Source of the DNA: Candidatus Eremiobacteria bacterium | Lineage (GTDB): Bacteria > Vulcanimicrobiota > Vulcanimicrobiia > Vulcanimicrobiales > Vulcanimicrobiaceae | Direction: 5' to 3' | Assembly (NCBI GenBank): GCA_963737065.1 | Contig: CAVTRC010000002.1 | Coordinates: 64,001-128,000, forward strand | DNA: 64,000 nucleotides | Notes under the pieces: generated by a model | The model's database searches: none | What the model saw: the letters and a program-made list of their open reading frames with translations, nothing else | What the model was told of the DNA's origin: nothing | Shown: positions 35,791 through 48,029 of the stretch, piece by piece | Layout of the letters: every line of letters starts with the position of its first letter | Numbering within the stretch: the stretch's first letter is position 1 | Position numbers and translations under genes: made by a program

Positions 35791-36793
35791 GGCACGCATC
35801 GCCATCGACGCAATGGGTGGAGATCATGCGCCCGACGAGATCGTCGCCGGTACCGTTCTTGCGGCGAACGAATGCGACGCGGAGCTGACGCTCGTCGGAG
35901 ATGAGTCTCGCGTGCGCGCATTACTGCGCGGCCCCGGTTCAGAAAAGATCGCCGTCGCGCACGCTCCTGAAGCCGTGCCGATGGATCAGCATGCATCCGC
36001 TTCGCTGCGTTCGTCCGATCGCACCTCGCTCGGCGTTGCGGTCAATCGGGTGAAAAACGGCGAGGCGGACGCCGTCGTCTCGGCCGGGAATAGCGGCGCG
36101 TTTCTCGCGATTGCGCTCATCAAATTGCGCACGATCGAAGGGATTGCGCGGCCCGCGATCGCGACGGTGTGGCCGGCGCTTCACGGTCCGACCGTGCTTC
36201 TCGATTCCGGTGCGAACGTCGATTGCCGTCCGGAGTGGCTCGAACAATTCGGCATGATGGGTTCCGCGTATGCGAAGGCGGTGCTGGGCATTGAGAATCC
36301 GCGAGTCGCGATTCTCTCCGTCGGCGAAGAACGCACGAAGGGCAATACGCAAGTACTCGAAGCGGCGCAGTTGCTCGATAAAGCGCCGGTCCACTTCATC
36401 GGCAACATCGAGGGCAAAGACATGTTTCACAATGCAGCCGACGTCATCGTCGCCGACGGATTCGTCGGCAACATCGTCTTGAAGACCGGCGAAGGCATGG
36501 TCTCGGCGATGGGCACGGTAATCAAAGACACGCTGCTTGGAAGCGGACTGCTGACAAAGCTCGGCACGGCGATGCTCGCGCCCGCGCTGCGCGGTTTGAG
36601 GCGGAAGTTCGACTACGAGACGTATGGCGGCGCGCCGCTGCTCGGGTTACGCGGAAACTGTATCGTAACGCACGGGCGCGCATCGCGGCGAGCGATCAAA
36701 CACGCGATCGGCGCCGCGATCGCGGAAGTCGATCATGACGTCGTCGGCAAGATCACCGAACTCGTAAAGCCGCACCTCGCGAAAGAGGCGTAG
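35783..36793 (+). CDS. plsX: Phosphate acyltransferase PlsX
   Basis: IAIDAMGGDHAP, SAGNSGA, LDSGAN, DGFVGNIVLK, GGAPLLG. Confidence 0.96.
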   Translation: MSKARIAIDAMGGDHAPDEIVAGTVLAANECDAELTLVGDESRVRALLRGPGSEKIAVAHAPEAVPMDQHASASLRSSDRTSLGVAVNRVKNGEADAVVSAGNSGAFLAIALIKLRTIEGIARPAIATVWPALHGPTVLLDSGANVDCRPEWLEQFGMMGSAYAKAVLGIENPRVAILSVGEERTKGNTQVLEAAQLLDKAPVHFIGNIEGKDMFHNAADVIVADGFVGNIVLKTGEGMVSAMGTVIKDTLLGSGLLTKLGTAMLAPALRGLRRKFDYETYGGAPLLGLRGNCIVTHGRASRRAIKHAIGAAIAEVDHDVVGKITELVKPHLAKEA

Positions 36794-36795
36794 CA

Positions 36796-37650
36796 CTGTC
36801 GCTGCAGATCGTGACCGACAGCACGTCGGATATTTCGCCCGAACGCGCGCGTTCGCTCGGGATCACGGTCGTGCCGCTTTTCGTCGTTTTCGGCGATCGC
36901 AGCTATCGCGATTACGTGGACTTGAGCCGTTGGCAGTTCTACGAGATGCTCGCGAACGAAAAAACGCTTCCGACCACCTCGCAGCCGTCTTCGCAGATGT
37001 TCGAAGAAGCGTTCCGGCCACTCGTCGATGCGGGTGACGAGATTCTTTGCATCACGATCTCTTCGTTTCTCTCGGGAACGATCAATGCGGCTCGCGCTGC
37101 CGCGCAAACGTTTCCCGACGCTTCGATCGAGATATACGACTCGCAGAGCGTTGCCGGCGGTCTCGGTATGATGACGATGCGCGCAAGAGACCTTGCCACG
37201 CGCGGCGCGAGCCGCGCGGAGGTCGTGCACGCGCTTGACTCCGAGCGCGTAACCCAACGTCTCTACGCGTCCATTCCGGATCTCTCGCATCTTCAGCGAA
37301 CCGGACGCATCGGTAAAGCGCAGCAAGTCCTCGGAACGTTGATGAAGATCGTTCCGGTGCTCGCGCTCAAAGACGGGCAAGTGGCCGCGGAAGCGCAGGT
37401 TCGTACGTTCAATCGCGCGCAGGACGCGATGCTCGACCTTGCGATGAACGCGGTAAGCGACGTAACGAAGGCGCGTTTTCTCGTCATGCACACCAACGCG
37501 CCGCAGCTTGCGGAGAACGCGCTCATCAAAGTCAAAGATCGCATCGACGGCACACCGCGGCTCCTCGAGATTCTAGAAGCCGGCCCGGTAATCGCGACGC
37601 ACGCAGGCGCCGGCGCGGTCGGAATCTTCGTCGCGCAAGATGCGCTTTGA
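36796..37650 (+). CDS. DegV family fatty-acid-binding protein (FakB-like); CTG start proposed
   Basis: IVTDST, PTTSQP, ISSFLSGT, L-x2-L-x2-GRI, HAGAG. Confidence 0.9.
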   Translation: MSLQIVTDSTSDISPERARSLGITVVPLFVVFGDRSYRDYVDLSRWQFYEMLANEKTLPTTSQPSSQMFEEAFRPLVDAGDEILCITISSFLSGTINAARAAAQTFPDASIEIYDSQSVAGGLGMMTMRARDLATRGASRAEVVHALDSERVTQRLYASIPDLSHLQRTGRIGKAQQVLGTLMKIVPVLALKDGQVAAEAQVRTFNRAQDAMLDLAMNAVSDVTKARFLVMHTNAPQLAENALIKVKDRIDGTPRLLEILEAGPVIATHAGAGAVGIFVAQDAL

Positions 37651-38792
37651 TCACCGTGAATGCCGAGTTGGGTGTCTACGTGCACCTTCCGTTTTGTCCG
37701 TATATTTGTCCGTACTGTGACTTTGCGAAGTGGCCGATGCGCCGAAGCATCGCATCGCAGTATCTCGAAGCGCTGTACAGCGAAATCGAGGAGCAGCCGA
37801 TCGAAGCGGCAGCGACGCTCTTTCTCGGCGGCGGCACGCCGAACGCGTATCGTGCCGATGAGATCGCGGCATTGCTTGCACGCCTTCGTGCGATCTACGA
37901 CGTCCAAAGCAGCGTGTCGGAAACGACGATCGAAGTGAATCCGGAGCTCATTGCACCCGGCGATTTCGAGCACTACGCCGCAGCCGGAGTCTCGCGCCTG
38001 TCGATCGGCGTCCAATCGTTCGACGCTGCGGAGATCGAGACGCTCGGAAGAAAGCATACGTCCGGACAGATTCGTGCAGCCGTCGAAGGCGCGCGTTCTG
38101 CGGCTATTGCGTCGGTTTCACTCGATCTCATCTTCGCCGTTCCCGGCCAAACGGTCACATCGTGGGATCGCTCGTTGCGCGCGGCGATCGACCTCGGCGT
38201 CGATCACGTCTCGACATACGGACTCACGATTGAGGAAGGGACGCCCTACGAACGGTGGTACGAGCGCCAGCCATCCGCATTTTTCGATGATGCACGCGAA
38301 GCGGATCTCTACGACCGCGCGATCGATGTGCTCGAGCGCGCCGGATACGAACACTACGAGATCAGCAGCTTTGCGAAACCCGGGCATCGCAGTGCGCACA
38401 ACGGCAACTATTGGCGTAACGGCGAATACGCCGGGCTCGGCGTCGGCGCCGCGTCATATCGCAACGGCGAACGATGGGTAAACACGCGCGATCTCAAGGT
38501 CTATCTCGATGCGGCGCTGGCGCGAACGCCGATTCCCGCGCAAAGCGAGCGTCTTCCGGCACATAAAGCGTGCGGAGAAGGACTGATGCTTGCTCTGCGA
38601 ACGGCGCAAGGGGTGGGACTGTGCGAGTTCAAGAAGCGGTACGGCGTTGACGTCGAGGAGCATTACGCTCCGGTAATCGCCCGCTATGGCGACGCGGGAT
38701 TGCTGGAAATCGAAGAAGGCCGAATGCGGTTGACGCGACGCGGAAAATTTCTTGCTAACGACGTGTGCGGAGCCTTTGTAACATTCGAGTAG
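37647..38792 (+). CDS. hemW: Radical SAM heme chaperone HemW
   Basis: YVHLPFCPYICPYCDF, GGGTP, SIGVQSF, HYEISSF, HNGNYW. Confidence 0.92.
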   Translation: MITVNAELGVYVHLPFCPYICPYCDFAKWPMRRSIASQYLEALYSEIEEQPIEAAATLFLGGGTPNAYRADEIAALLARLRAIYDVQSSVSETTIEVNPELIAPGDFEHYAAAGVSRLSIGVQSFDAAEIETLGRKHTSGQIRAAVEGARSAAIASVSLDLIFAVPGQTVTSWDRSLRAAIDLGVDHVSTYGLTIEEGTPYERWYERQPSAFFDDAREADLYDRAIDVLERAGYEHYEISSFAKPGHRSAHNGNYWRNGEYAGLGVGAASYRNGERWVNTRDLKVYLDAALARTPIPAQSERLPAHKACGEGLMLALRTAQGVGLCEFKKRYGVDVEEHYAPVIARYGDAGLLEIEEGRMRLTRRGKFLANDVCGAFVTFE

Positions 38793-39889
38793 CGGGCAAC
38801 AACCTTTCCGGCGCGATTTTGCGAACGATGTTTATCGTCGTGTTCGCAGTGACGGGCTTTTTGCTCGGCCGCGAAGCGTACTTAGGCATCCTCTCGCTTC
38901 ACGTCGCGAATGAAGCGCTTCAGATCGCGCTCTCGATTGGTTCGTCGGTGGCCGGTGCGCTTGTCGGCGTGCTGGTGGCGCCATTCGCGCAGAGCTTCTT
39001 CGAAGACGAGCTCATCGTCGCCGAAGGCGCAATCGAACGCCTGTCCCCAGCCGAAGTCGCCGGGGGCGCGATCGGCCTCATCGCGGGGCTCGGCATTTCA
39101 CTGCTCGTGAAGAACATTGCATTCGAGTTCGTAAACTTCGCAGGACGCTCGGGCCATTATCTTGCGATCGTGTTGTACTTGATCGTTGCGGCTTTTTGCG
39201 CCTATCTCGGCGCGCGTGTCGGCGCGAAAATCGGAATGCGGCCGCTCGGCGATCGCGCCGATACGGCGCCCGCTAAAATCGTAGATACGTCCGTGATCAT
39301 CGATGGCCGCATCCTGGAGATCGTCGAGAGCGGATTTTTGGAAGGGACCCTCGTCGTACCGCGTTTCGTGTTGCGCGAACTGCAGACGATTGCCGATTCC
39401 GTCGATCCGCTCAAGCGCACGCGCGGGCGGCGCGGTCTCGAAGTGTTGAGCCGTTTGCAAGAACTGCGCGCGTTAGACATCAGCGAGCGCGATTACAGCG
39501 ATCTGCCGCCCGGAAACGTCGACGCGAAGCTCGTTCGCCTCGCACGCGAGACGAGCGGTAAATTATTGACCAACGATTACAATCTCAATCGTGTCGCAAG
39601 CGTCGAGCGGGTCGACGTGTTGAATATCAACGAACTTTCGAATGCGGTGAAGCCGGTCGTTCTTCCGGGCGAAGAGATGAACGTTCACGTGATTCGCGAG
39701 GGAAAAGAACCGAATCAAGGCGTTGCATATCTCGACGACGGGACGATGATCGTCGTCGAACAAGGGCGCCGACTCATCGGCGAAGAGACCGACGTCGTCG
39801 TCACGAGCGTGTTGCAAACCGTCGCCGGCCGCATGATTTTTGCGCGACCAAAGCCAGGGCCCGTCCACTCAGCGCCGCATGGTACGTAG
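38765..39889 (+). CDS. PIN/TRAM domain membrane protein (YacL-like); start uncertain
   Basis: Four TM segments, DTSVIIDGRI, RGRRGL, TNDYNLN, GVAYLDDGTMIVVE, GRMIFA. Confidence 0.92.
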   Translation: MRSLCNIRVAGNNLSGAILRTMFIVVFAVTGFLLGREAYLGILSLHVANEALQIALSIGSSVAGALVGVLVAPFAQSFFEDELIVAEGAIERLSPAEVAGGAIGLIAGLGISLLVKNIAFEFVNFAGRSGHYLAIVLYLIVAAFCAYLGARVGAKIGMRPLGDRADTAPAKIVDTSVIIDGRILEIVESGFLEGTLVVPRFVLRELQTIADSVDPLKRTRGRRGLEVLSRLQELRALDISERDYSDLPPGNVDAKLVRLARETSGKLLTNDYNLNRVASVERVDVLNINELSNAVKPVVLPGEEMNVHVIREGKEPNQGVAYLDDGTMIVVEQGRRLIGEETDVVVTSVLQTVAGRMIFARPKPGPVHSAPHGT

Positions 39890-40032
39890 ATGGATTCCTT
39901 GCTCGCCTGCACCGCGCTGCTCACCGGGCACGCATCTGAGGCTTCGCGCACTCTTCCCGCCTTGCGAGGGCGAGGAATGAACGGAATCCGGTGCCATGCA
40001 ACGACCGGCGAACGCCCACATCGGACGGTTCG

Positions 40033-40986
40033 ATGAATTGGGGAGCGATTGTCGTCGCCGCTGGACGCGGTACTCGCTTCGGTGGCCCGAAGCAGTTCGT
40101 CGAGATCGGCGGGCTGCCGATGATCGGCTGGTCGATCCGAACGTTCGCCGCGATGCCCGAGATCGGCGAACTGGTCCTCGTCACCGAGGACGAATGGCTT
40201 GAGCCGATGCGCTCGCTCGCATCGCAACTCGCGCCGGCGCATACACCGGCGATGGTTGAAGGCGGTCCGTCGCGTCACGCGAGCGTACGCAACGGTTTGC
40301 ATGCGTTGTCCGATCGTTGCGGCGGAGTGCTCGTGCATGATGGTGCGCGTCCGCTGGTTCGTGCCGAAGACGTCCGCAAGGGGATGCGCGAAGTACGTGC
40401 CGGGCGTGCAGCGGTGCTCGCCGCGCCGGTCGTCGACACGATCAAGATTGTCGATCCGGCGACAATGCTCGTTCGAAAGACGCTCGATCGCGGTGAGCTG
40501 TGGGCGGCGCAAACGCCCCAATTCTCTATGCGACGTGAGCTTCAGCGCGCGCACATCGAGGCGCAGCGTGCCGGGACCGAAGCGACGGACGACGTGACGC
40601 TGCTCGAAGCAATCGGCATTGAGGTAATGGCCGTTGCGTCGTCGGCCGAGAATTTCAAAGTGACGCATCCGCCGGACGTTGCGCGTGCCGAGACGCTCTT
40701 GCGCGAGCGGCTCGACCACGCGCCCGAAGAAGACGAGGTGTTACTCATCGAAGTCTTTGCAGACGACGCGCTCGTCGAGGCGATCGAGCGTGAGTTGGAA
40801 TCGCGCGGCGCAACGATCGACGCTATCGATCGCGACCTCCCGCGCGGTGCGATCGTCCGCGCCTACGTGTCGTCGAACGCCTTGCGCGGATTCGGTTCGC
40901 GATTCGAAGCGTTTGGCGACGGTACGGCGACGTTCACGACGCGCTTTTCGCATTACGGGGGCCGCGGCGAAGGAGTCCGTGCGTGA
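40033..40986 (+). CDS. ispD: 2-C-methyl-D-erythritol 4-phosphate cytidylyltransferase with an extra C-terminal EF-G domain V-like module
   Basis: AAGRGTRFG..KQF, HDGARP, QTPQ, TDD, NFKVT; about 80 extra residues ending GTATFTTRFSHY. Confidence 0.93.
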   Translation: MNWGAIVVAAGRGTRFGGPKQFVEIGGLPMIGWSIRTFAAMPEIGELVLVTEDEWLEPMRSLASQLAPAHTPAMVEGGPSRHASVRNGLHALSDRCGGVLVHDGARPLVRAEDVRKGMREVRAGRAAVLAAPVVDTIKIVDPATMLVRKTLDRGELWAAQTPQFSMRRELQRAHIEAQRAGTEATDDVTLLEAIGIEVMAVASSAENFKVTHPPDVARAETLLRERLDHAPEEDEVLLIEVFADDALVEAIERELESRGATIDAIDRDLPRGAIVRAYVSSNALRGFGSRFEAFGDGTATFTTRFSHYGGRGEGVRA

Positions 40987-41468
40987 CGAGGGTCGGACAC
41001 GGTTTTGACGCGCACCGCTTCAGCCCCCGACGGCGCCTCGTGCTCGGCGGAGTTGAAGTTCCCCACGATAGCGGACTGCTTGGCCATTCGGATGCCGACG
41101 TCGTCGCCCATGCGGTCTCCGACGCACTTCTCGGCGCTGCCGCTCTCGGCGATCTCGGCGGCCATTTTCCCGACACCGACCCGAAATGGAAGGACGCCGA
41201 CTCGATGGTGCTGCTCGAGGCGTGCATGCAATCCGTCCGCGATGCCGGATACGCCGTTTCGAACGTCGATGCGACGATCGTCGTCGATCGTCCGAAGCTC
41301 GCGCCCTATATCGGAGCGATGCGCGAAAACCTCGCGACGCGTCTCCAATTGCCGCTCGAACGCATTAGCATCAAAGCGAAGACGAGCGAAGGAATGGGGT
41401 ATACGGGAGACGGCACCGGGGTCGCGGCGTATGCGGTCGCCGCTATAGAGAAGAGGGAGCGCGCCTAA
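40983..41468 (+). CDS. ispF: 2-C-methyl-D-erythritol 2,4-cyclodiphosphate synthase
   Basis: GFDAH, GHSDADV..HA..DA, GDLG.HFPD, KAKTSEG. Confidence 0.96.
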   Translation: MTRVGHGFDAHRFSPRRRLVLGGVEVPHDSGLLGHSDADVVAHAVSDALLGAAALGDLGGHFPDTDPKWKDADSMVLLEACMQSVRDAGYAVSNVDATIVVDRPKLAPYIGAMRENLATRLQLPLERISIKAKTSEGMGYTGDGTGVAAYAVAAIEKRERA

Positions 41469-42019
41469 TGGACGTTTCTCGGGCGCAGTTGATGACGGCG
41501 ATGCAGCGATGGCGTTTTCTCGGAGATTCGCCACCGGATGCAGCGATTCGCTGGATCGACTCGTTCTTAGAGGCGTACGGTGAACGGCTGGCCGGCGTCG
41601 ACGACGCCTATCCGTTCGTCGCTGCGCTGCGAGCGGAGGCGTGTGTGATCCCGGCCCTCGAACTGGAACGGCTCCGTACGCGCAACGTACTGTTCTTTCT
41701 CGATTCCGTAGGCCAGTATATCGACGATCAGCCGGAACTGCGCGCTTTGCCGCTTTCTCAAGACATTCCGGCGATTGCGGCAGAATTCGGCATATCGAAA
41801 GAGGACGCGTTTTATGCCGTACGCATGGCGCTTACGGGAGCCAAAGATGGACCGCCGCTCGAACTGCTTTTTCCGCTGCTGGGCCACGACCGCATGCTCA
41901 TGCGTATCGGGGCGGTGAATTCGCGCTTGCTGCACGGACGTGGCCTCGAACCGATCAAATATGGCCCGGATGGGAAGCCGTTCGAACCGATTCGCTCGAA
42001 GGCGCCCGATGACGTCTGA
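41468..42019 (+). CDS. Stand-alone GluRS anticodon-binding-domain-like protein
   Basis: AVRMALTGAKDGPPLELLFPLLGHDRMLMRI matches the GluRS/class I LysRS C-terminus; no HIGH or KMSKS; RBS GAGGGAG. Confidence 0.7.
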   Translation: MDVSRAQLMTAMQRWRFLGDSPPDAAIRWIDSFLEAYGERLAGVDDAYPFVAALRAEACVIPALELERLRTRNVLFFLDSVGQYIDDQPELRALPLSQDIPAIAAEFGISKEDAFYAVRMALTGAKDGPPLELLFPLLGHDRMLMRIGAVNSRLLHGRGLEPIKYGPDGKPFEPIRSKAPDDV

Positions 42020-42695
42020 TCTGCTCGACACGCTTCGTCGCGATCTGAATGCGCCGCTCGAGCGCGATCCCGCAGTCCGTGGTTCACTGGACGTTATTTT
42101 GTCGTATCCCGGGTTTCATGCGATCGTTGCGTATCGACTGTTTCACACGCTGCATCGCGCCGGCATTCCGCTGTTGCCGCGCTGGCTTTCGCACGTCACG
42201 CGCTTTTTCACCGGGATCGAAATTCATCCAGGAGCGACGATCGGCGAAAACGTCTTCATCGATCACGGCATGGGTGTCGTCATCGGTGAGACCGCCGAAG
42301 TGGGCGAGGGGTGCACGATTTACCAAGGCGTGACGCTCGGCGGCACGAGCTTGAAGCGCACGAAGCGCCACCCGACGCTTGGCCAAAATGTCACGGTCGG
42401 GGCAAACGCATGCGTTATCGGCGCGATTTTTATCGGTGACAATGCGCGCGTCGGCAGCGGCTCCGTCGTCGTGCGCGACGTTCCGGCCAATGCGACGGTT
42501 GTCGGTATTCCCGCACACGTGGTCGCGATGGACGGAAAACCGGTGCGCGCCGTGCCTGACCGTCCGCAAGTCGAAATGCCCGATCCGAATGAAACGGCGA
42601 TCAAGGAACTGAACCGCCGTATCGTACAGCTGGAAGATCGCATCGACACCATCGAAGGTAAGGAAGGCGAAGAGCACTGGTCGTGGGTGATTTAA
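42009..42695 (+). CDS. cysE: Serine O-acetyltransferase
   Basis: RDPA, YPGFHA, TGIEIHPGA, FIDHGMGVVIGET, KRHPT. Confidence 0.96.
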   Translation: MTSDLLDTLRRDLNAPLERDPAVRGSLDVILSYPGFHAIVAYRLFHTLHRAGIPLLPRWLSHVTRFFTGIEIHPGATIGENVFIDHGMGVVIGETAEVGEGCTIYQGVTLGGTSLKRTKRHPTLGQNVTVGANACVIGAIFIGDNARVGSGSVVVRDVPANATVVGIPAHVVAMDGKPVRAVPDRPQVEMPDPNETAIKELNRRIVQLEDRIDTIEGKEGEEHWSWVI

Positions 42696-44125
42696 AGCTT
42701 TACAACACACGAACGCGCACGCTCGAAAAGTTTCACCCGCTCTCGGCGGGTGACGTTCGTATCTATGTCTGTGGACTAACTCCCTCGGCTCAAGCACACC
42801 TCGGCCATGCCCGCTCATTCCTGTTTTTCGATCTGCTCCGCCGCTACTTGACGTATCGCGGCTATCGCGTGATGTACGTGCAAAACGTTACGGATATCGA
42901 CGATCGCAGTATCAACCGCGCGCGCGAAACAGGCGAAGACTGGTACAAAATCGTCTCCGATTACTATACGGAGTTCAAAACTTCGATGCGCGCGCTCGGC
43001 GTCATTGAGCCGGACGAGGAACCATACGCGACAAAATTTATTCCACAAATCGAAGCGATGATTCGCCAGTTGATCGAACGGGGCTACGCCTACGTCGTTG
43101 AAGACGGCATCTACTATCGCGTCAACCGCTTTCCAAATTATGGAAAGCTCAGCAACCGCAACATCGAAGAACTCGAAGCGGGCGCACGCATCGAAATCGG
43201 CGAGCACAAAGACGATCCACTGGACTTCGCGTTGTGGAAGTTCGCAAAGCCGGGCGAACCGAAGTGGCCCTTCGACCCTTACGGTGACGGGCGTCCCGGT
43301 TGGCACATCGAATGTTCGGCGATGTCGCACACGTTGCTCGATCCGCAAGGAAACGGGTTCGATATTCACGGGGGTGGTGCGGACTTGATCTTTCCGCATC
43401 ACGAGAATGAGATCGCGCAGAGCGAACCGCTGATGCTCCATCCACCGATGGCGAGTTTTTGGGTGCACGGCGGATTGCTGAATTTCGAGGGGCGGAAGAT
43501 GTCGAAATCGCTCGGCAATTTCGAGCCGCTCGTGGACCTTCTCGCGCGTCACGATCCGCAAGCGATTCGCTTGGCGTTTTTGACCACGGGCTACAGCAAG
43601 GTGATGAACTTTACGGAAGATTCGCTGCGCGCCTCGTATGCCACGCTTGATAAGTTGAAGCGCGCGTATCGCGGAATGCATCCCGGCGGCGTCGTCATGC
43701 CCGTTCACAACATCGCGAACGGATTGCCGGCACGCGTTGCGGATTTTCTCGACGAAGACATGAATACGGCTGCGGCGCTTGCCGAAGTGCTCGCGTTCAT
43801 CAAAGATGCGCGGCCCAGTGGGCTCGCGGAGTTCGAAACAGCGCTGTGGCTGCTCGGCATCGAACCGGACGGTGCGTGGCTGGTGGAAGAAGTGACGCCT
43901 ATTCCGGTCGATCTGCTCGAACGTTTGCGTGCGGAGCTCGGCGGCGAACTCTCATTCAACGGCGCGACGCCGGAGGACGCCGTCGCGCTCGTCATTGCGC
44001 GGCGCGCATCTGCGCGCGCCGCAAAAGACTGGGGCGCATCCGATCGTCTACGCGACGCACTCGCCCGCTGCGGCATCTCGATCAAGGATTCGAGGGAAGG
44101 CACGACTTGGACCGTCGCGCAGTAA
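42683..44125 (+). CDS. cysS: Cysteine--tRNA ligase
   Basis: YVCG, HLGH, NVTDIDD, DFALWK, GRPGWHIECSAM, DIHGGG, FPHHENE, KMSKS. Confidence 0.97.
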   Translation: MGDLKLYNTRTRTLEKFHPLSAGDVRIYVCGLTPSAQAHLGHARSFLFFDLLRRYLTYRGYRVMYVQNVTDIDDRSINRARETGEDWYKIVSDYYTEFKTSMRALGVIEPDEEPYATKFIPQIEAMIRQLIERGYAYVVEDGIYYRVNRFPNYGKLSNRNIEELEAGARIEIGEHKDDPLDFALWKFAKPGEPKWPFDPYGDGRPGWHIECSAMSHTLLDPQGNGFDIHGGGADLIFPHHENEIAQSEPLMLHPPMASFWVHGGLLNFEGRKMSKSLGNFEPLVDLLARHDPQAIRLAFLTTGYSKVMNFTEDSLRASYATLDKLKRAYRGMHPGGVVMPVHNIANGLPARVADFLDEDMNTAAALAEVLAFIKDARPSGLAEFETALWLLGIEPDGAWLVEEVTPIPVDLLERLRAELGGELSFNGATPEDAVALVIARRASARAAKDWGASDRLRDALARCGISIKDSREGTTWTVAQ

Positions 44126-44127
44126 AC

Positions 44128-44520
44128 GGACCCGCGCGCGCTTTACGTATGGGGAGGCGCAGCGCAGAGTGCTGTTAGCCGAGTGCTGTTAAACGAAAGG
44201 GGTCTCCAAAGTGCGCAGCACGTTCGGTGAAGGGGACCCACGCGCTTTGCGTGTGGGGGCGCGCAGCGCGCAGCGCGGAGTGCTGTTAAACGAAAGGGGT
44301 CTCCAAAGTGCGCAGCACGTTCGGTGAAGGGGACCCACGCGCTTTGCGTGTGGGGGCGCGCAGCGCGCAGCGCGGAGTGCTGTTAAACGAAAGGGGTCCC
44401 CAAAGTGCGCAGCACGTTCGGTGAAGGGGATCCACGCGCTTTGCGTGTGGGGGCGCGCAGCGCGCAGCGCGGAGTGCTGTTAAACGAAAGGGATCCCCAA
44501 AGTGCGCAGCACTTTGGGGC
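44128..44520. repeat. 97-bp tandem repeat array (three full units, flanking partial units) rich in hairpins
   Basis: GAGTGCTGTTAAACGAAAGGG recurs at 44181, 44278, 44375 and 44472 (period 97); units differ by only 1-2 substitutions. Confidence 0.95.
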
Positions 44521-44528
44521 AAGGCGAC

Positions 44529-45326
44529 ATGGACCGTAGCAAGGTGAAACCGCGCCGTCAGCCGCGTCTCGATTTCGACGACGTGATGTACGGCGTGCAC
44601 GTTGTCGAAGAAGCATTGTCGGCCGGTGAGACGCTGCGTGCGATTCACATCTCCGACGAGCGCAAGCGCGATCCTTTGCTGCGCAAAATCATCGGTGAAG
44701 CAAAGCAGCGCGATATTCGCGTGCGATTCGAAGACCGCGCGTTCTTTACGCAGCTGCCGTTCAAGGCGCATCAAGGGATCATCGCGATTGCGCCGCCGTT
44801 CCAGTACGCGTCGTTGGACGACGTGATGAGTAAGCGAAAACCGACGAGCGCACTGTTCGTGTTGCTCGATCACCTTACCGATCCGCACAACGTGGGCGCG
44901 ATCGTTCGCAGCGCGGAGTGTTTCGGTGCCGATGCGGTAATTTTGCCCGAACGGCGCTCGGCGGGGATCAACGCAACCGTTCGCAAAGCCGCCGCCGGCG
45001 CAGCCCAACATATTGCAATCGTGCGCGTTTCGAATATCAACGACGCGATTCGTCAAATCAAGAAGGCGGGCGTTTGGGTTGCCGGCGCCCATGCCGGCGA
45101 AAGTTCCGTCGACGTGAGCGAGGCGGATTTCAATCGCGACATCGCGCTCGTTATTGGTGCAGAGGGCGAGGGACTCGCGCAGCTCGTGCGGCGTGAGTGC
45201 GACTACTTGGTACGCATTCCGATGCGTGGGGTCATTGAATCGTTGAATGCCTCGGTTGCTGCCGGCGTGTTAATGTACGAAGTCGTCCGACAAAGATTGC
45301 AGCAAGCCGCATCAGTCCACAGCTAA
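44529..45326 (+). CDS. rlmB: 23S rRNA G2251 2'-O-methyltransferase (TrmH family)
   Basis: HQGI, DPHNVGAIVRSA, IGAEGEG, SLNASVA. Confidence 0.93.
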   Translation: MDRSKVKPRRQPRLDFDDVMYGVHVVEEALSAGETLRAIHISDERKRDPLLRKIIGEAKQRDIRVRFEDRAFFTQLPFKAHQGIIAIAPPFQYASLDDVMSKRKPTSALFVLLDHLTDPHNVGAIVRSAECFGADAVILPERRSAGINATVRKAAAGAAQHIAIVRVSNINDAIRQIKKAGVWVAGAHAGESSVDVSEADFNRDIALVIGAEGEGLAQLVRRECDYLVRIPMRGVIESLNASVAAGVLMYEVVRQRLQQAASVHS

Positions 45327-45352
45327 TCCCCAACATTATGCTTGCGTTATCC

Positions 45353-45381
45353 TTGACGCGAGAAGGACCCCCTCCTATAAT
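45353..45381 (+). promoter_or_regulatory. Near-consensus sigma70 promoter of sigH
   Basis: TTGACG (45353-45358), 17 nt, TATAAT (45376-45381). Confidence 0.8.
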
Positions 45382-45456
45382 CACGTGGATGTGTCGCGTT
45401 CGACGGACTGCGGCCCGCGTGTTTCGGCACAGCGACTACCACGAGGCGTTAATTAC

Positions 45457-46104
45457 ATGGCTATGACCCATCCTGTTCCGGATGGATTGGAGTACAACGA
45501 GAGAGCCGACGAAGATCTCGTTGCCATCGCGAAATCGGGCGACAACCTGGCGATGGAGTACCTGCTCAACAAGTACAAAAACTTCGTTCGAATCAAGGCC
45601 AAGAGCTACTTCTTGATCGGCGCGGACCGTGAGGACATCATTCAAGAAGGAATGATTGGCCTCTATAAAGCCGTGCGTGACTTCAAAGCGGATAAGCTTT
45701 CAAGCTTCCGTGCGTTTGCTGAGCTATGCATCACCCGCCAGATCATTACGGCGATTAAGACGGCGACGCGCCAGAAGCACATTCCGCTTAACCAATACAT
45801 CTCACTGAACAAGCCGATCTACGACGAGGACAGCGAGCGCACGCTTCTCGACGTGATGGCCTCGCAAAAAACCTCGGATCCCGAGGAACTGGTCGTCACG
45901 CAAGAAGTCTCCGACGATATCCGCCAGCGCATCCGCCAAAATCTCTCCGAGCTGGAATCGCAGGTCTTGGAATCATACCTGGAAGGCAAAAGCTACCAAG
46001 AGATGGCGCGCGATCTCGGCCGCCACGTGAAATCGATCGACAACGCGCTGCAGCGCGTGAAACGCAAGATCGAAAAGAACCTCGCGGAGTTCGAGTTCCA
46101 GTAA
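45457..46104 (+). CDS. sigH: RNA polymerase sigma factor SigH (Spo0H family)
   Basis: YFLIGADREDIIQEGMIGLYKA, FAELCITRQIITAIKTATRQKHIPLN, KSIDNALQRVKRK. Confidence 0.95.
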   Translation: MAMTHPVPDGLEYNERADEDLVAIAKSGDNLAMEYLLNKYKNFVRIKAKSYFLIGADREDIIQEGMIGLYKAVRDFKADKLSSFRAFAELCITRQIITAIKTATRQKHIPLNQYISLNKPIYDEDSERTLLDVMASQKTSDPEELVVTQEVSDDIRQRIRQNLSELESQVLESYLEGKSYQEMARDLGRHVKSIDNALQRVKRKIEKNLAEFEFQ

Positions 46105-46137
46105 GCAAAGATCGCAATTCCGGTAAGCATCCAAAAG

Positions 46138-46172
46138 AAGAAGCCGCATCGAGACGACGATGCGGCTTTCTT
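46138..46172 (+). terminator. Rho-independent terminator after sigH
   Basis: AAGCCGCATCG/CGATGCGGCTT stem followed by TCTT; A-rich upstream flank allows bidirectional use. Confidence 0.8.
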
Positions 46173-46174
46173 GC

Positions 46175-46615
46175 TTAGAGCCTTGTTACATAGGCGTCGA
46201 GCCAACCCAGCACAACCGTCCAGCCCGCTTCGTGGTCATCGTACATCTCTTGATTGGGGAAGCCGGAATGCGTCAGACGAACGCGCGTCTTCCCGTTGGT
46301 CTCCGTGAGATCGAACCGGACGACGGTTTCGGTCGGTTCCCCGAACCGATTGTGAATCCAGGTGAATTCCAGCACGTTCGGCGGTTCGATCAGCCGGTAC
46401 ACGCCGTGGACGCAATGATCCTCCGGAATACTGCTGACCATTTGCCATCTTCCGCCGACGTGAACGTCCGCCTCAAAAGACTCGAGCCGGTGCATATCGT
46501 TGTTCCACCACTCGGAAAGTTCGGACGGGTCTGTGAGCGCTGCGAAAACCTTTGCAGCGGGCGCATCGATGTCGATCTCTTTGACGATCGCGGGAAGGAC
46601 TTGAGTCGTACTCAT
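46175..46615 (-). CDS. SRPBCC/AHSA1 domain protein
   Basis: IDAPAAKVFAALTDP..L..WW, GVYRLIEPP..LEFTW, HEAGW. Confidence 0.88.
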   Translation of the reverse strand: MSTTQVLPAIVKEIDIDAPAAKVFAALTDPSELSEWWNNDMHRLESFEADVHVGGRWQMVSSIPEDHCVHGVYRLIEPPNVLEFTWIHNRFGEPTETVVRFDLTETNGKTRVRLTHSGFPNQEMYDDHEAGWTVVLGWLDAYVTRL

Positions 46616-46926
46616 CGTTTATTCTCCACGTGGGCTTTGAGACGCGCAAGACTGCGATCCCAGAAGTGCTTGTAGTCGTCGAGCCAGGCGTCCACGCATT
46701 TGAGCGGTTCCGGATTGAGTTCGCACATGCGCGCGGCTCCCTGCGGCGTGTCTTTTACGAGCTTCGCTTCACGCAAGATGCGTAAGTGTTTAGAGATTGC
46801 AGGACGGCTCGTGTGAAAATTCGCGGCCAAATCGCCGACGGTACAGGCGCCGTTTCGCAAGATGCCGAGGATCTCGCGGCGGGTCGGATCGGCGAGGGCC
46901 TTGAAGACAAGATGTGAGGTAACCAT
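46612..46926 (-). CDS. ArsR/SmtB family transcriptional regulator
   Basis: VFKALADPTRREIL, SRPAISKHLRILREA; start set at ATG 46926 from the promoter position. Confidence 0.9.
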   Translation of the reverse strand: MVTSHLVFKALADPTRREILGILRNGACTVGDLAANFHTSRPAISKHLRILREAKLVKDTPQGAARMCELNPEPLKCVDAWLDDYKHFWDRSLARLKAHVENKR

Positions 46927-46967
46927 TCGGTTACGCATATGGTAGCCGAATGGTTACGAATCGTCAA
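46919..46967 (-). promoter_or_regulatory. ArsR operon promoter with overlapping double operator
   Basis: TTGACG, 17 nt, TACCAT on the minus strand; GTAACCATTCGGTTAC (46919-46934) and GTAGCCGAATGGTTAC (46942-46957) form an inverted pair. Confidence 0.75.
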
Positions 46968-47113
46968 CCGGCTTGACCGGCAATTCTGTCTGTTTGCATA
47001 AGCGACGGACCGTCGTCTCGTCGTCGGTCGGGCAAGCTACGTTCGCGCTGCGCGTACAGACGCGCCAGGCCGACGCAGAACTCTCCGCACACGGGCGGAA
47101 CCCGCTTCAGGTC

Positions 47114-47488
47114 TTACTTTCGTTGATGGAGTCCGAAGTAATTTCCGTCAGGGTCTTGGCACCACTCGGAAAAACACGGGTCGCCCGTCCCGAACCGCTT
47201 GACGTAGGTTCCACCAAGTTCCACGACGCGTTTGCGCAGTGTTTCCGCATCCTCCACGCCGAACACGACCCCGCCCGTAGGAGTGAATTCTGTTGCTTCC
47301 GGGTCGCGTCCAATTGCAAGCGTATTCCCGTCGGGCAAATCGTACTCCACGTAAAAATCCTGGTACTCCACCGACGCTTTGAGGTTGAGAAGCGCCTCGT
47401 AGAACGTGCGCAATTTGTGCATATCGCGCGTTTGAACGATGACGAAATCGAAACCGCGCGTCAACGGTTCAGTGCTGGTTGTACTCAT
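47114..47488 (-). CDS. VOC/glyoxalase family protein
   Basis: FYEALL, V.F.VED, DPDGNYFGLHQ. Confidence 0.88.
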   Translation of the reverse strand: MSTTSTEPLTRGFDFVIVQTRDMHKLRTFYEALLNLKASVEYQDFYVEYDLPDGNTLAIGRDPEATEFTPTGGVVFGVEDAETLRKRVVELGGTYVKRFGTGDPCFSEWCQDPDGNYFGLHQRK

Positions 47489-47524
47489 ACCGTTATACTA
47501 ACCGACCAATCCTGACATTTACCG

Positions 47525-47869
47525 TCAGGATTGTCCCTTGCCTCCCATTCGCTCGACGATGACGTCGTAGACCGCCCGTTTTTCATCGAGCGGATCGACG
47601 ACCATTACCTGCGCACGATCGCCGTTCTTCGGATCGAGGCAGACGGTCACTTTGCCTTTCGCGCACACGTCCATGCAACTCGTCGAAATCACGCGAACCG
47701 GTCCCCATTCGCCATGCTCTTTTAGCGCTGCTTTGAGCCAGTTGCGTAGATTAAAATCGCCGATGCGTTCGGCGATGTCCGGATCTTCTTCAGGGATACG
47801 TTCTTTGAAACACCGCTCGCACACGAGCACGAGGCCGCTGCTGAGCCATTTCGGTTTGACGGGCTGCAT
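47525..47869 (-). CDS. Thioredoxin-like (2Fe-2S) ferredoxin domain protein
   Basis: VLVCERC...TSCMDVC Cys pattern. Confidence 0.6.
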   Translation of the reverse strand: MQPVKPKWLSSGLVLVCERCFKERIPEEDPDIAERIGDFNLRNWLKAALKEHGEWGPVRVISTSCMDVCAKGKVTVCLDPKNGDRAQVMVVDPLDEKRAVYDVIVERMGGKGQS

Positions 47870-47946
47870 GGGGCGCTCACACTTGCGGACTCGTTTCGCA
47901 TTCCCCTTTATCACCGCGCACGAACGGCGCATCGTAATGAAAGCGG

Positions 47947-48029
47947 AGCCGACGGCCGGATTCGAACCGGCGTGCTCTTTCGAGGCGCAATTACAAATCG
48001 CGTGCTTTCAACCGCTCAGCCACGTCGGC
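47947..48029 (-). tRNA. tRNA-Thr(UGU) with long variable arm
   Basis: GCCGACG/CGTCGGC acceptor, D-loop GG, anticodon arm CGCGA-TTTGTAA-TTGCG, 14-nt variable region with CTC-GAAA-GAG, GCCGG-TTCGAAT-CCGGC T arm, U73. Confidence 0.85.

Follow-up and report, generated by a model that had tools for sequence, protein, structure and literature searches.

The stretch examined here, referred to as the window, comprises 64,000 nucleotides (nt) of contig CAVTRC010000002.1 (GenBank assembly GCA_963737065.1) from Candidatus Eremiobacteria bacterium, a soil bacterium whose genome (G000) is assembled to 3.08 Mb in 2 contigs and is 95.3% complete. It carries an operon in which the place of gltX, the gene for glutamyl-tRNA synthetase (GluRS), is occupied by an open reading frame (ORF) for a protein of 183 amino acids (aa) consisting of a GluRS anticodon-binding domain (ABD) without a catalytic domain. 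Comparison with related genomes indicates, with little room for doubt, that this orphan ABD derives from the gltX of an ancestral operon and was freed after replacement by a foreign GluRS. Judged by its codon substitutions, it is under purifying selection. The features of the locus are the following (positions are those of the window).

39991..40986, + strand: ispD, with a C-terminal EFG_C-like extension (residues 252-322, nt 40744-40956), from Pfam
40983..41468, + strand: ispF (YgbB, PF02542, 220.6 bits; residues 3-155 of 161)
41454..41459, + strand: Shine-Dalgarno-like AGGGAG, inside the end of ispF, 8 nt before the ABD ATG
41468..42019, + strand: stand-alone GluRS ABD protein, 183 aa, intact ORF with ATG start
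41510..41911, + strand: core ABD, residues 15-148, matching Pfam Anticodon_2 and holding the invariant R119, G128 and L131
41933..41992, + strand: C-terminal tail motif HGRGLEPIxYGPDGxPFEPI, residues 156-175, conserved in the alignment and outside the Pfam domain
42009..42695, + strand: cysE (serine acetyltransferase; Pfam Hexapep and SATase_N), the start ATG at 42009 being probable
42683..44125, + strand: cysS (cysteinyl-tRNA synthetase; Pfam tRNA-synt_1e, 365 bits)

The operon runs in the order PIN/TRAM gene, ispD, ispF, ABD ORF, cysE, cysS, SpoU methylase gene and sigma factor gene. A preliminary description of the window, made from its sequence, had noted in the gltX slot an intact ORF coupled to ispF and overlapping cysE. 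This arrangement stands: the ispF stop overlaps the ABD start in the sequence TAATG, the AGGGAG lies 8 nt upstream and the end of the ORF overlaps the probable cysE start by 11 nt. Since ispF ends at 41468, there is no room upstream for a catalytic domain, and the ORF begins at a domain boundary. Among the loci with a stand-alone ABD, the AGGGAG sequence varies between genera and 4-nt overlaps of the ATGA type are common. The GC content at the three codon positions of the ORF (0.70/0.44/0.67) is like that of the neighbouring genes.

Identity and predicted structure of the stand-alone domain

The protein matches PF19269 (Anticodon_2) with 34.9 bits (gathering score 23.6, E 2.5e-8), residues 15-148 aligning with profile positions 9-138 of 141. 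The Pfam search of the ORF returned no tRNA-synt_1c match, and the Rossmann domain and the HIGH and KMSKS motifs expected of a working enzyme are lacking. The NCBIfam model gltX_bact is covered only at positions 351-464 of 470 (22.9 bits, cut-off 289.95), which correspond to its C-terminal part. These results bear out the preliminary reading of the ORF as a free-standing GluRS ABD devoid of a catalytic domain, for which a search against the Anticodon_2 profile and a structural match had been named as checks.

The structural comparison agrees with the profile. An AlphaFold2 (AF2) model based on a 25-sequence alignment includes 9 helices and has a predicted local distance difference test (pLDDT) score of 90.4 and a predicted TM-score (pTM) of 0.86; confidence is lower over residues 156-183, the pLDDT of the tail being 55-78. 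When the model was compared with the PDB using Foldseek, ranks 1-40 were all GluRS chains (probability 0.97-1.00, query TM-score, TMq, 0.47-0.70). The top match was 2cfo_B from Thermosynechococcus elongatus (TMq 0.70, root mean square deviation 2.7 Å, 153 columns), and E-values were modest, the best being 1.5e-3.

A profile-to-PDB alignment equates R119 of the orphan with Arg435 of the Thermus thermophilus enzyme, G128 with Thr444 and L131 with Leu447, and the three residues are invariant in 25 of 25 aligned sequences. In the passages of PMC12088422 that deal with these positions, Arg435 is described as highly conserved, stacking on U35 and forming a hydrogen bond with base 34, and Leu447 as part of the floor of the base-34 pocket. 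No conclusion regarding tRNA(Gln) as opposed to tRNA(Glu) was drawn from the invariant G128.

A loose regular expression for the motif of the C-terminal tail matched in 76/76 loci of the stand-alone type, and a six-frame search of the genome found the motif nowhere outside the ABD ORF. The full-length forms of G018, G027, G029, G041 and G042 carry the tail as well (G and L numbers denote genomes and loci), and it is older than the deletion described below.

Distribution and origin of the orphan domain

The relatives include Candidatus Aquilonibacter, Baltobacteraceae and Vulcanimicrobiota, i.e. Eremiobacterota. All genomes are of metagenome-assembled (MAG) grade and several are unpublished (G014 and G036, which enter the tRNA-synt_1c and foreign-GluRS counts, G041-G043 and G049). 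The ORF, used as query, matched 35 of 41 related genomes and 23 of the 24 belonging to the same family. In tblastn comparisons of the loci it stands alone between ispF and cysE in G002-G006, G011-G013, G015-G017, G021 and G024, and the same slot carries a full-length gltX (catalytic domain and ABD) in G018 and G019 of the same family, G025-G027 of the sister family and G039 of the same class. The fused ABD of G018 is 67% identical to the window protein. A survey of the best 80 of 156 species-level loci in the GTDB genome collection gave 74 with the ABD alone and ispF directly upstream, 2 cut by contig ends and 4 fused; ispF directly precedes the ABD in 74/74 stand-alone loci that have an upstream side.

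The stand-alone N-termini (14 genomes) align to one point, just past the "...LRKLP" that closes domain 3 in the fused forms. The 11 stand-alone sequences form one group (support 100) in a tree of 39 ABDs; this and the other tree come from quick searches, with SH-aLRT values as their sole support and no bootstraps. This group is nested among the syntenic fused ABDs, its nearest relatives being those of G018, G041, G042 and G043, and a branch of 2.78 (support 99) parts the stand-alone and syntenic ABDs from those of the other two GluRS types. The single clade and the common N-terminal point together indicate one deletion of about 335 codons, in a genome ancestral to most of the family. Separation was not accompanied by a burst of change, the stem of the stand-alone clade being short (0.28).

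The number of tRNA-synt_1c matches per genome follows the same pattern. All 11 genomes from other families of the class have two; in the sister family 5/5 genomes have two and, in addition, a short GluQRS-like gene; and 21/24 genomes of the window's own family have one. Of the remaining three genomes of this family, G018 and G019 each encode two full-length enzymes, and the one gene of G023 is divided between two contig ends. A tree of catalytic domains resolves four groups. Two hold the syntenic paralogue, one from the window's family and its sister family and the other from the remaining families; a third is the "second" paralogue, and the fourth, on a long stem (0.99, support 100), is the single enzyme of the window's family.

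Several further observations concern these genes. In the 39-ABD tree a very long branch (2.6, support 100) lies between the syntenic ABDs of the other families and those of the window's family with its sister family, and the catalytic domains of the syntenic genes are not comparably split between those families; remodelling of the ABD apparently took place at the base of the order and preceded its orphaning. The short GluQRS-like genes of the sister family (about 306 aa, catalytic domain only; L044/G027, L045/G025) are clear in 4/5 genomes and partial in G026, and neither the window's family nor the remaining families of the class yielded any. In G019 the full-length GluRS of the syntenic slot (L019:4012-5328) has kept HIGH and KLSKR, but about 41 residues around its zinc-binding CxC...C insertion are missing. 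With 34-40% identity and an end branch of 1.15, its ABD has diverged strongly, and the gene seems to have taken another path of decay or specialisation.

A profile search of 1.84 billion representatives yielded 268 matches at E up to 1e-3. Short ABD matches from outside the Eremiobacterota were treated as fragments: most start inside GluRS domain 3 or lie on contigs of less than 4 kb, and one clusters with a 491-aa protein.

The genome encodes a single GluRS of foreign type

A profile search of the genome found one tRNA-synt_1c (PF00749) match, at C1:1840440-1841942. This only GluRS, a protein of 500 aa, has the motifs HVGT and KLSKR as well as an Anticodon_2 domain of its own (97.8-101 bits). 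Neither a GlnRS gene nor a GluQRS-like gene was found in the genome at its 95.3% completeness; GatB and glutamyl-tRNA reductase (GluTR) are present, so that Glu-tRNA is used in three ways, and the single GluRS should serve translation, Gln-tRNA formation and tetrapyrrole synthesis. The tRNAs concerned are tRNA(Glu) UUC and CUC and tRNA(Gln) UUG and CUG. A further 81-nt tRNA-Glu(UUC) candidate reported by ARAGORN (G000:C2:226563-226643) has poorly paired stems and was judged a probable false positive.

This inventory bears on one reading offered in the preliminary description, that the ORF is half of a split GluRS whose catalytic-only, GluQ-like partner is encoded elsewhere. There is a possible precedent in work by Dubois et al. 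(2009, Biochemistry), in which the free distal domain of E. coli GluRS reportedly stimulates the C-truncated enzyme, that is, engineered halves are said to cooperate in trans. The listing of homologues nevertheless left this reading without a partner: the sole tRNA-synt_1c match is full length and has its own ABD (roughly 5% of the genome being unassembled), the same single match is found in 21/24 relatives of the family, and short genes of GluQRS type are confined to the sister family, which still has a whole gltX. We consider a split enzyme hardly credible.

The single GluRS differs in type from the syntenic enzymes. Its matches score 647.8 bits with P. aeruginosa 5tgt, 590.8 bits with M. 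catarrhalis 9ymm, 462.7 bits with C. pneumoniae 9y81, 447.6 bits with T. thermophilus and 296.7 bits with E. coli GluRS, and the best match of the syntenic enzyme of G018 is GluRS1 of Thermotoga maritima. The signatures of non-canonical dimeric GluRS given in section 8 of PMC12088422 are an Asp before HIGH, Phe or Tyr at position 439 of the P. aeruginosa enzyme (Pa439) and a C-terminal LGGΦSKKxxKxΦEK. The foreign GluRS has the Asp (PTGDPHVG) and, as in Chlamydiia, Tyr at the Phe439 site (FYVAITG), and its C-terminal LGAPSKKEQDEWKK is a partial match to the third signature. D14 and Y440 are invariant in 19/19 sequences. On these signature residues the enzyme is assigned to the non-canonical dimeric subfamily.

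The foreign gene lies after those for methylmalonyl-CoA mutase and a B12-binding subunit and before a GlmU-like gene, which is the place of the second paralogue. The flanking genes of G018 are 62-88% identical to those of the window genome and the GluRS between them is just 34-37% identical, and the replacement looks, from this comparison, like an in-place xenologous displacement of the second canonical copy. The foreign type was found at 58-88% identity in 23 of 41 genomes; in the other 18 the best match reached at most 47%.

An ABD match is present in 22 of these 23 genomes, in all 22 apart from any catalytic domain, and 5/5 further stand-alone genomes, G049 among them, carry the foreign enzyme only. 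Such co-occurrence could mean that the orphan canonical ABD docks on the foreign GluRS as an accessory subunit and supplies canonical anticodon reading in trans, the more so as the foreign enzyme has Tyr at the site of the base-35-stacking Arg that the orphan retains, and as the work of Dubois et al. would offer a precedent. The foreign GluRS, however, already has a complete ABD (97.8 bits); in its solved relatives the ABD of the partner protomer fills the canonical position, according to PMC12088422; functional replacement already accounts for the co-occurrence; and unusual conservation of the ABD preceded the arrival of the foreign enzyme, as seen from G018, G041 and G042 below. An accessory subunit is quite unlikely on this evidence. 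Co-folding of the ABD with the genome's GluRS scored 0.00 in a run without controls and is given no weight either way.

An intermediate stage and the order of events

Of the four fused cases in the survey of 80 loci, three (G041, G042 and G044) lack the foreign enzyme and the fourth, G043, has it (64% identity). The syntenic gltX of G043 encodes 507 aa and has lost both HIGH and KMSKS: in the HIGH region PRVSRATDTAAA stands in place of the PSPTGQTHVGG of relatives, and in the KMSKS region RSDYR, with a gap of 3 residues, in place of their SKLSKR. The zinc-binding insertion is partly deleted, and the tRNA-synt_1c score is 159.9 bits compared with 320.4 for G018. The decay is confined to one half of the protein. 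The catalytic half of G043 is 45-48% identical to those of G018, G041 and G042, which are 75-76% identical among themselves, and its ABD is 71-73% identical to theirs. The nonsynonymous distance (dN) of the catalytic half is 0.45-0.50 in pairs with G043 as against 0.18-0.19 among the other fused forms, and that of the ABD 0.22-0.23 as against 0.15-0.17.

The state of G043 gives the order of events: the foreign enzyme came in, the catalytic half decayed, and the catalytic half was deleted, the ABD being held throughout. Evidence for the intermediate comes from G043, and that for the stage with a fused gene and no foreign enzyme partly from G041 and G042, all three unpublished.

The comparison of genomes shows, with high confidence, the following course. 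The ancestral operon was ispD-ispF-gltX-cysE-cysS, the ORF being the ABD of its gltX, and a further canonical GluRS gene of the ancestor lay between the B12 subunit and glmU-like genes. On the way to most Baltobacteraceae, a non-canonical GluRS of the Pseudomonas/Moraxella/Chlamydia type, acquired horizontally, displaced this second copy at its own locus and became the sole GluRS. The operon gltX then lost catalysis, first by decay of its motifs and then by one deletion of about 335 codons, and its ABD with the C-terminal tail was retained as a separately translated protein of 183 aa.

Selection and maintenance

The ratio of nonsynonymous to synonymous substitutions (dN/dS; Nei-Gojobori, within genus, dS 0.5-1.6) is 0.060-0.153 for the ABD (15 pairs, median 0.108), 0.046-0.148 for ispF (15 pairs, median 0.080) and 0.056-0.135 for cysE (10 pairs, median 0.069). 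The ABD match forms one uninterrupted segment in 76/76 loci of the stand-alone type, with ORFs of 170-202 aa. The orphan is also more conserved than the ABD of the working GluRS of the same genomes, with identities between G000 and G012 of 73% and 60%, respectively, between G000 and G015 of 70% and 64%, between G000 and G010 of 63% and 50%, and between G000 and G021 of 64-66% and 53%. The ORF thus shows neither the relaxed selection nor the frame disruptions and patchy retention of a pseudogene.

That the ORF might be a slowly decaying deletion remnant, or a spacer kept for translational coupling within the operon, would fit the full-length gltX in the slot of relatives, the overlaps with both neighbours and frame breaks in two relatives. 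The preliminary description had itself regarded the ORF as maintained rather than decayed, and had named as the sign of a remnant a full-length gltX in relatives together with relaxed selection; the full-length genes exist, and selection is not relaxed. The dN/dS values (0.06-0.15) are like those of the essential neighbours, the ORF is intact at all 76 loci in many genera and exceeds the working enzyme's ABD in conservation, and in G043 the catalytic half decays and the ABD half does not. As to coupling, cysE lies downstream in 72/76 loci of the stand-alone type; it is missing from L051, L061 and L089, and L106 is cut by a contig end. At L089, L051 and L061 neither cysE nor cysS follows, and at L089 the ABD is the last gene before genes on the opposite strand, with nothing coupled downstream. 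Coupling to cysE cannot explain retention where cysE is gone and the ABD is kept, and a remnant or spacer is very improbable.

Constraint on the domain would seem to be older than its separation. In G018, G041 and G042 the ABDs are 77-80% identical and the catalytic halves 75-76%, unlike the second paralogue, in which the two halves stand at 63-67% and 47-51%, and the foreign enzyme, in which they stand at 67-83% and 47-64%. Such near-equal conservation of ABD and catalytic half is unusual.

Possible function

The retention of the ABD suggests that it has a second task beyond aminoacylation, and this task probably predates the separation and would have arisen inside the full-length enzyme. Most likely the orphan has retained binding to the anticodon arm of tRNA(Glu), tRNA(Gln) or both, and it may act in trans as a tRNA-binding adaptor or chaperone, with the conserved tail probably docking a protein partner. 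Its R119, G128 and L131 have equivalents in the catalytically intact fused enzymes, which must read tRNA. A repurposed tRNA-binding protein, which the preliminary description had listed among its readings, appears to be the best interpretation. The mechanism in particular, a trans-acting binder or adaptor of the tRNA(Glu/Gln) anticodon arm that makes use of the tail, is possible rather than probable, and the explanation as a whole, origin and mechanism together, seems to us about evenly poised between right and wrong.

A more specific form of this idea can be drawn from DALRD3, described in the relevant part of PMC7237682 as a protein with an ArgRS-type anticodon-binding domain that targets METTL2 to tRNA(Arg). 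By this analogy the orphan might be a bacterial counterpart of DALRD3, a subunit that selects tRNA(Glu/Gln) for GatCAB, GluTR or an anticodon-loop modification enzyme and docks through its tail, in a role older than the split. We regard this version as rather unlikely. Should it apply, an earlier moonlighting constraint would explain why the domain outlived its catalytic half.

It may be asked whether an RNA role is needed. The domain and tail could bind IspF, CysE or another protein as a regulator, the GluRS ancestry being historical. Tight translational coupling to ispF at 74/74 loci would suit such a role, as would the acidic character of the protein and the conservation pattern: residues 54-96 are strongly conserved, together with the tail, in the ABD and in G018- and G027-type enzymes and variable in the other syntenic enzymes. 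Against this, adjacency to ispF is ancestral and follows from the place of gltX, the ABD survives the moving away of cysE, the same ABD and tail occur in catalytically intact full-length enzymes that must bind tRNA, and the canonical Arg is invariant. A protein-protein regulator without an RNA role is unlikely.

Several points weigh against the tRNA-binding reading preferred here and the account of its origin. Only two of the five T. thermophilus anticodon-pocket positions named in the passages concerned of PMC12088422 are conserved (Arg435 and Leu447). Leu427, Ala431 and Phe448 are replaced by K111, F115 and E132, and the equivalent of Arg358 (base 36) could not be mapped, domain 4 having failed to align in the profile-to-PDB search. 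With a pI of 4.4-4.9 and a net charge between -6 and -12, the ABD core is acidic, somewhat more so than the fused forms (pI 4.9-5.8), and a local surface would have to carry any binding of tRNA. The G016 sequence stops before the tail, and G014 (75% complete, unpublished) has the foreign GluRS and no ABD match. The dS is saturated beyond the genus, and among the fused forms it is saturated or not computable, so that only dN was used there. Among the 22 relatives that combine the foreign GluRS with an ABD match, two have a frame break in the tail of the ABD: G001, with a TAG (C2:559323-559869), and G021 (L025). G021 is also frame-broken in its sigma factor gene, which suggests indel or assembly errors in these few-contig assemblies rather than genuine pseudogenes. 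Finally, no need for such a protein is known in organisms with the same non-canonical GluRS, for example Chlamydiia or Pseudomonas.

Relation to known systems

Free-standing domains derived from synthetases are already a known kind, and such pieces (AlaX, YbaK, GluQRS and DALRD3) have repeatedly proved to have functions of their own. In a search of the literature on stand-alone GluRS ABDs and on Eremiobacterota synthetases, we found no description of a protein like the orphan ABD, and its database labels are limited to "hypothetical", "Anticodon binding domain-containing protein" and "glutamyl/glutaminyl-tRNA synthetase".

The canonical bacterial GluRS ABD (domains 4-5; T. thermophilus residues 323-468) shares with the orphan its fold, a Pfam score above threshold and the equivalents of Arg435 and Leu447, and the orphan descends directly from a syntenic gltX. 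It differs in being unattached to a catalytic domain, in its conserved extension of about 35 aa, in exceeding the ABDs of the working enzymes of the same genomes in conservation, and in its low Pfam score (35-38 bits), a trait it has in common with its fused ancestors. The free distal domain of E. coli GluRS is likewise a GluRS ABD on a separate polypeptide, with possible action in trans, but it comes from an engineered split with a catalytic-only partner, whereas the orphan is natural, long-lived and without such a partner.

GluQRS (YadB) is a GluRS paralogue with the catalytic domain only and no ABD. It is also a natural one-domain derivative of GluRS and forms the mirror image of the orphan; the window genome has none. 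DALRD3, as portrayed in the part of PMC7237682 cited above, offers the best functional analogy, a synthetase-type anticodon-binding domain that selects tRNA without a synthetase; it is eukaryotic, has a domain of DALR type and a known partner enzyme, and the orphan is analogous to it by domain only.

The window genome's GluRS resembles the non-canonical dimeric enzymes of P. aeruginosa, M. catarrhalis and Chlamydia in its scores (647.8, 590.8 and 462.7 bits) and signature residues. Baltobacteraceae and Eremiobacterota lie outside the taxa listed in section 8 of PMC12088422, and the assignment would extend the subfamily described there to Eremiobacterota.

Dasgupta and Basu, in the portion of their study that concerns the GluRS C-domain (PMC3927822), make the case for this domain as an evolutionarily mobile module and invoke a separately existing GluRS C-domain for the origins of chimeric GluRS2. 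The orphan ABD would be a living example of such a domain. Kept alone over long evolutionary time, it amounts to a natural dissection of GluRS in which the ABD is selectable without aminoacylation. All stages are represented in living genomes (two canonical enzymes; a foreign enzyme with a motif-dead full-length gene; a foreign enzyme with the orphan domain), and the order of events in the xenologous displacement of an aminoacyl-tRNA synthetase (aaRS) can thus be read directly.

Other observations at the locus

An Rfam scan of 36000-48000 (E up to 1) gave no match, hence no T-box or other known RNA element, and a scan for promoters and terminators showed nothing notable within the operon. Between cysS and the gene for the SpoU-type methylase, about 375 nt (44126-44501) carry no + strand ORF of at least 60 aa and no Rfam match; in Bacillus subtilis this position is that of mrnC.

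The EFG_C match on the IspD extension is borderline (28.1 bits, cut-off 27.9). The preliminary description had linked this EF-G-like tail to the ABD, as two translation-derived modules flanking ispF. The link does not hold up: among 72 stand-alone-type loci with a scorable IspD the tail is present in 13 and absent from 59, and it is absent from G006 of the same genus. By its distribution the IspD tail is unrelated to the ABD, and the place of the ABD beside isoprenoid and cysteine genes is inherited synteny.

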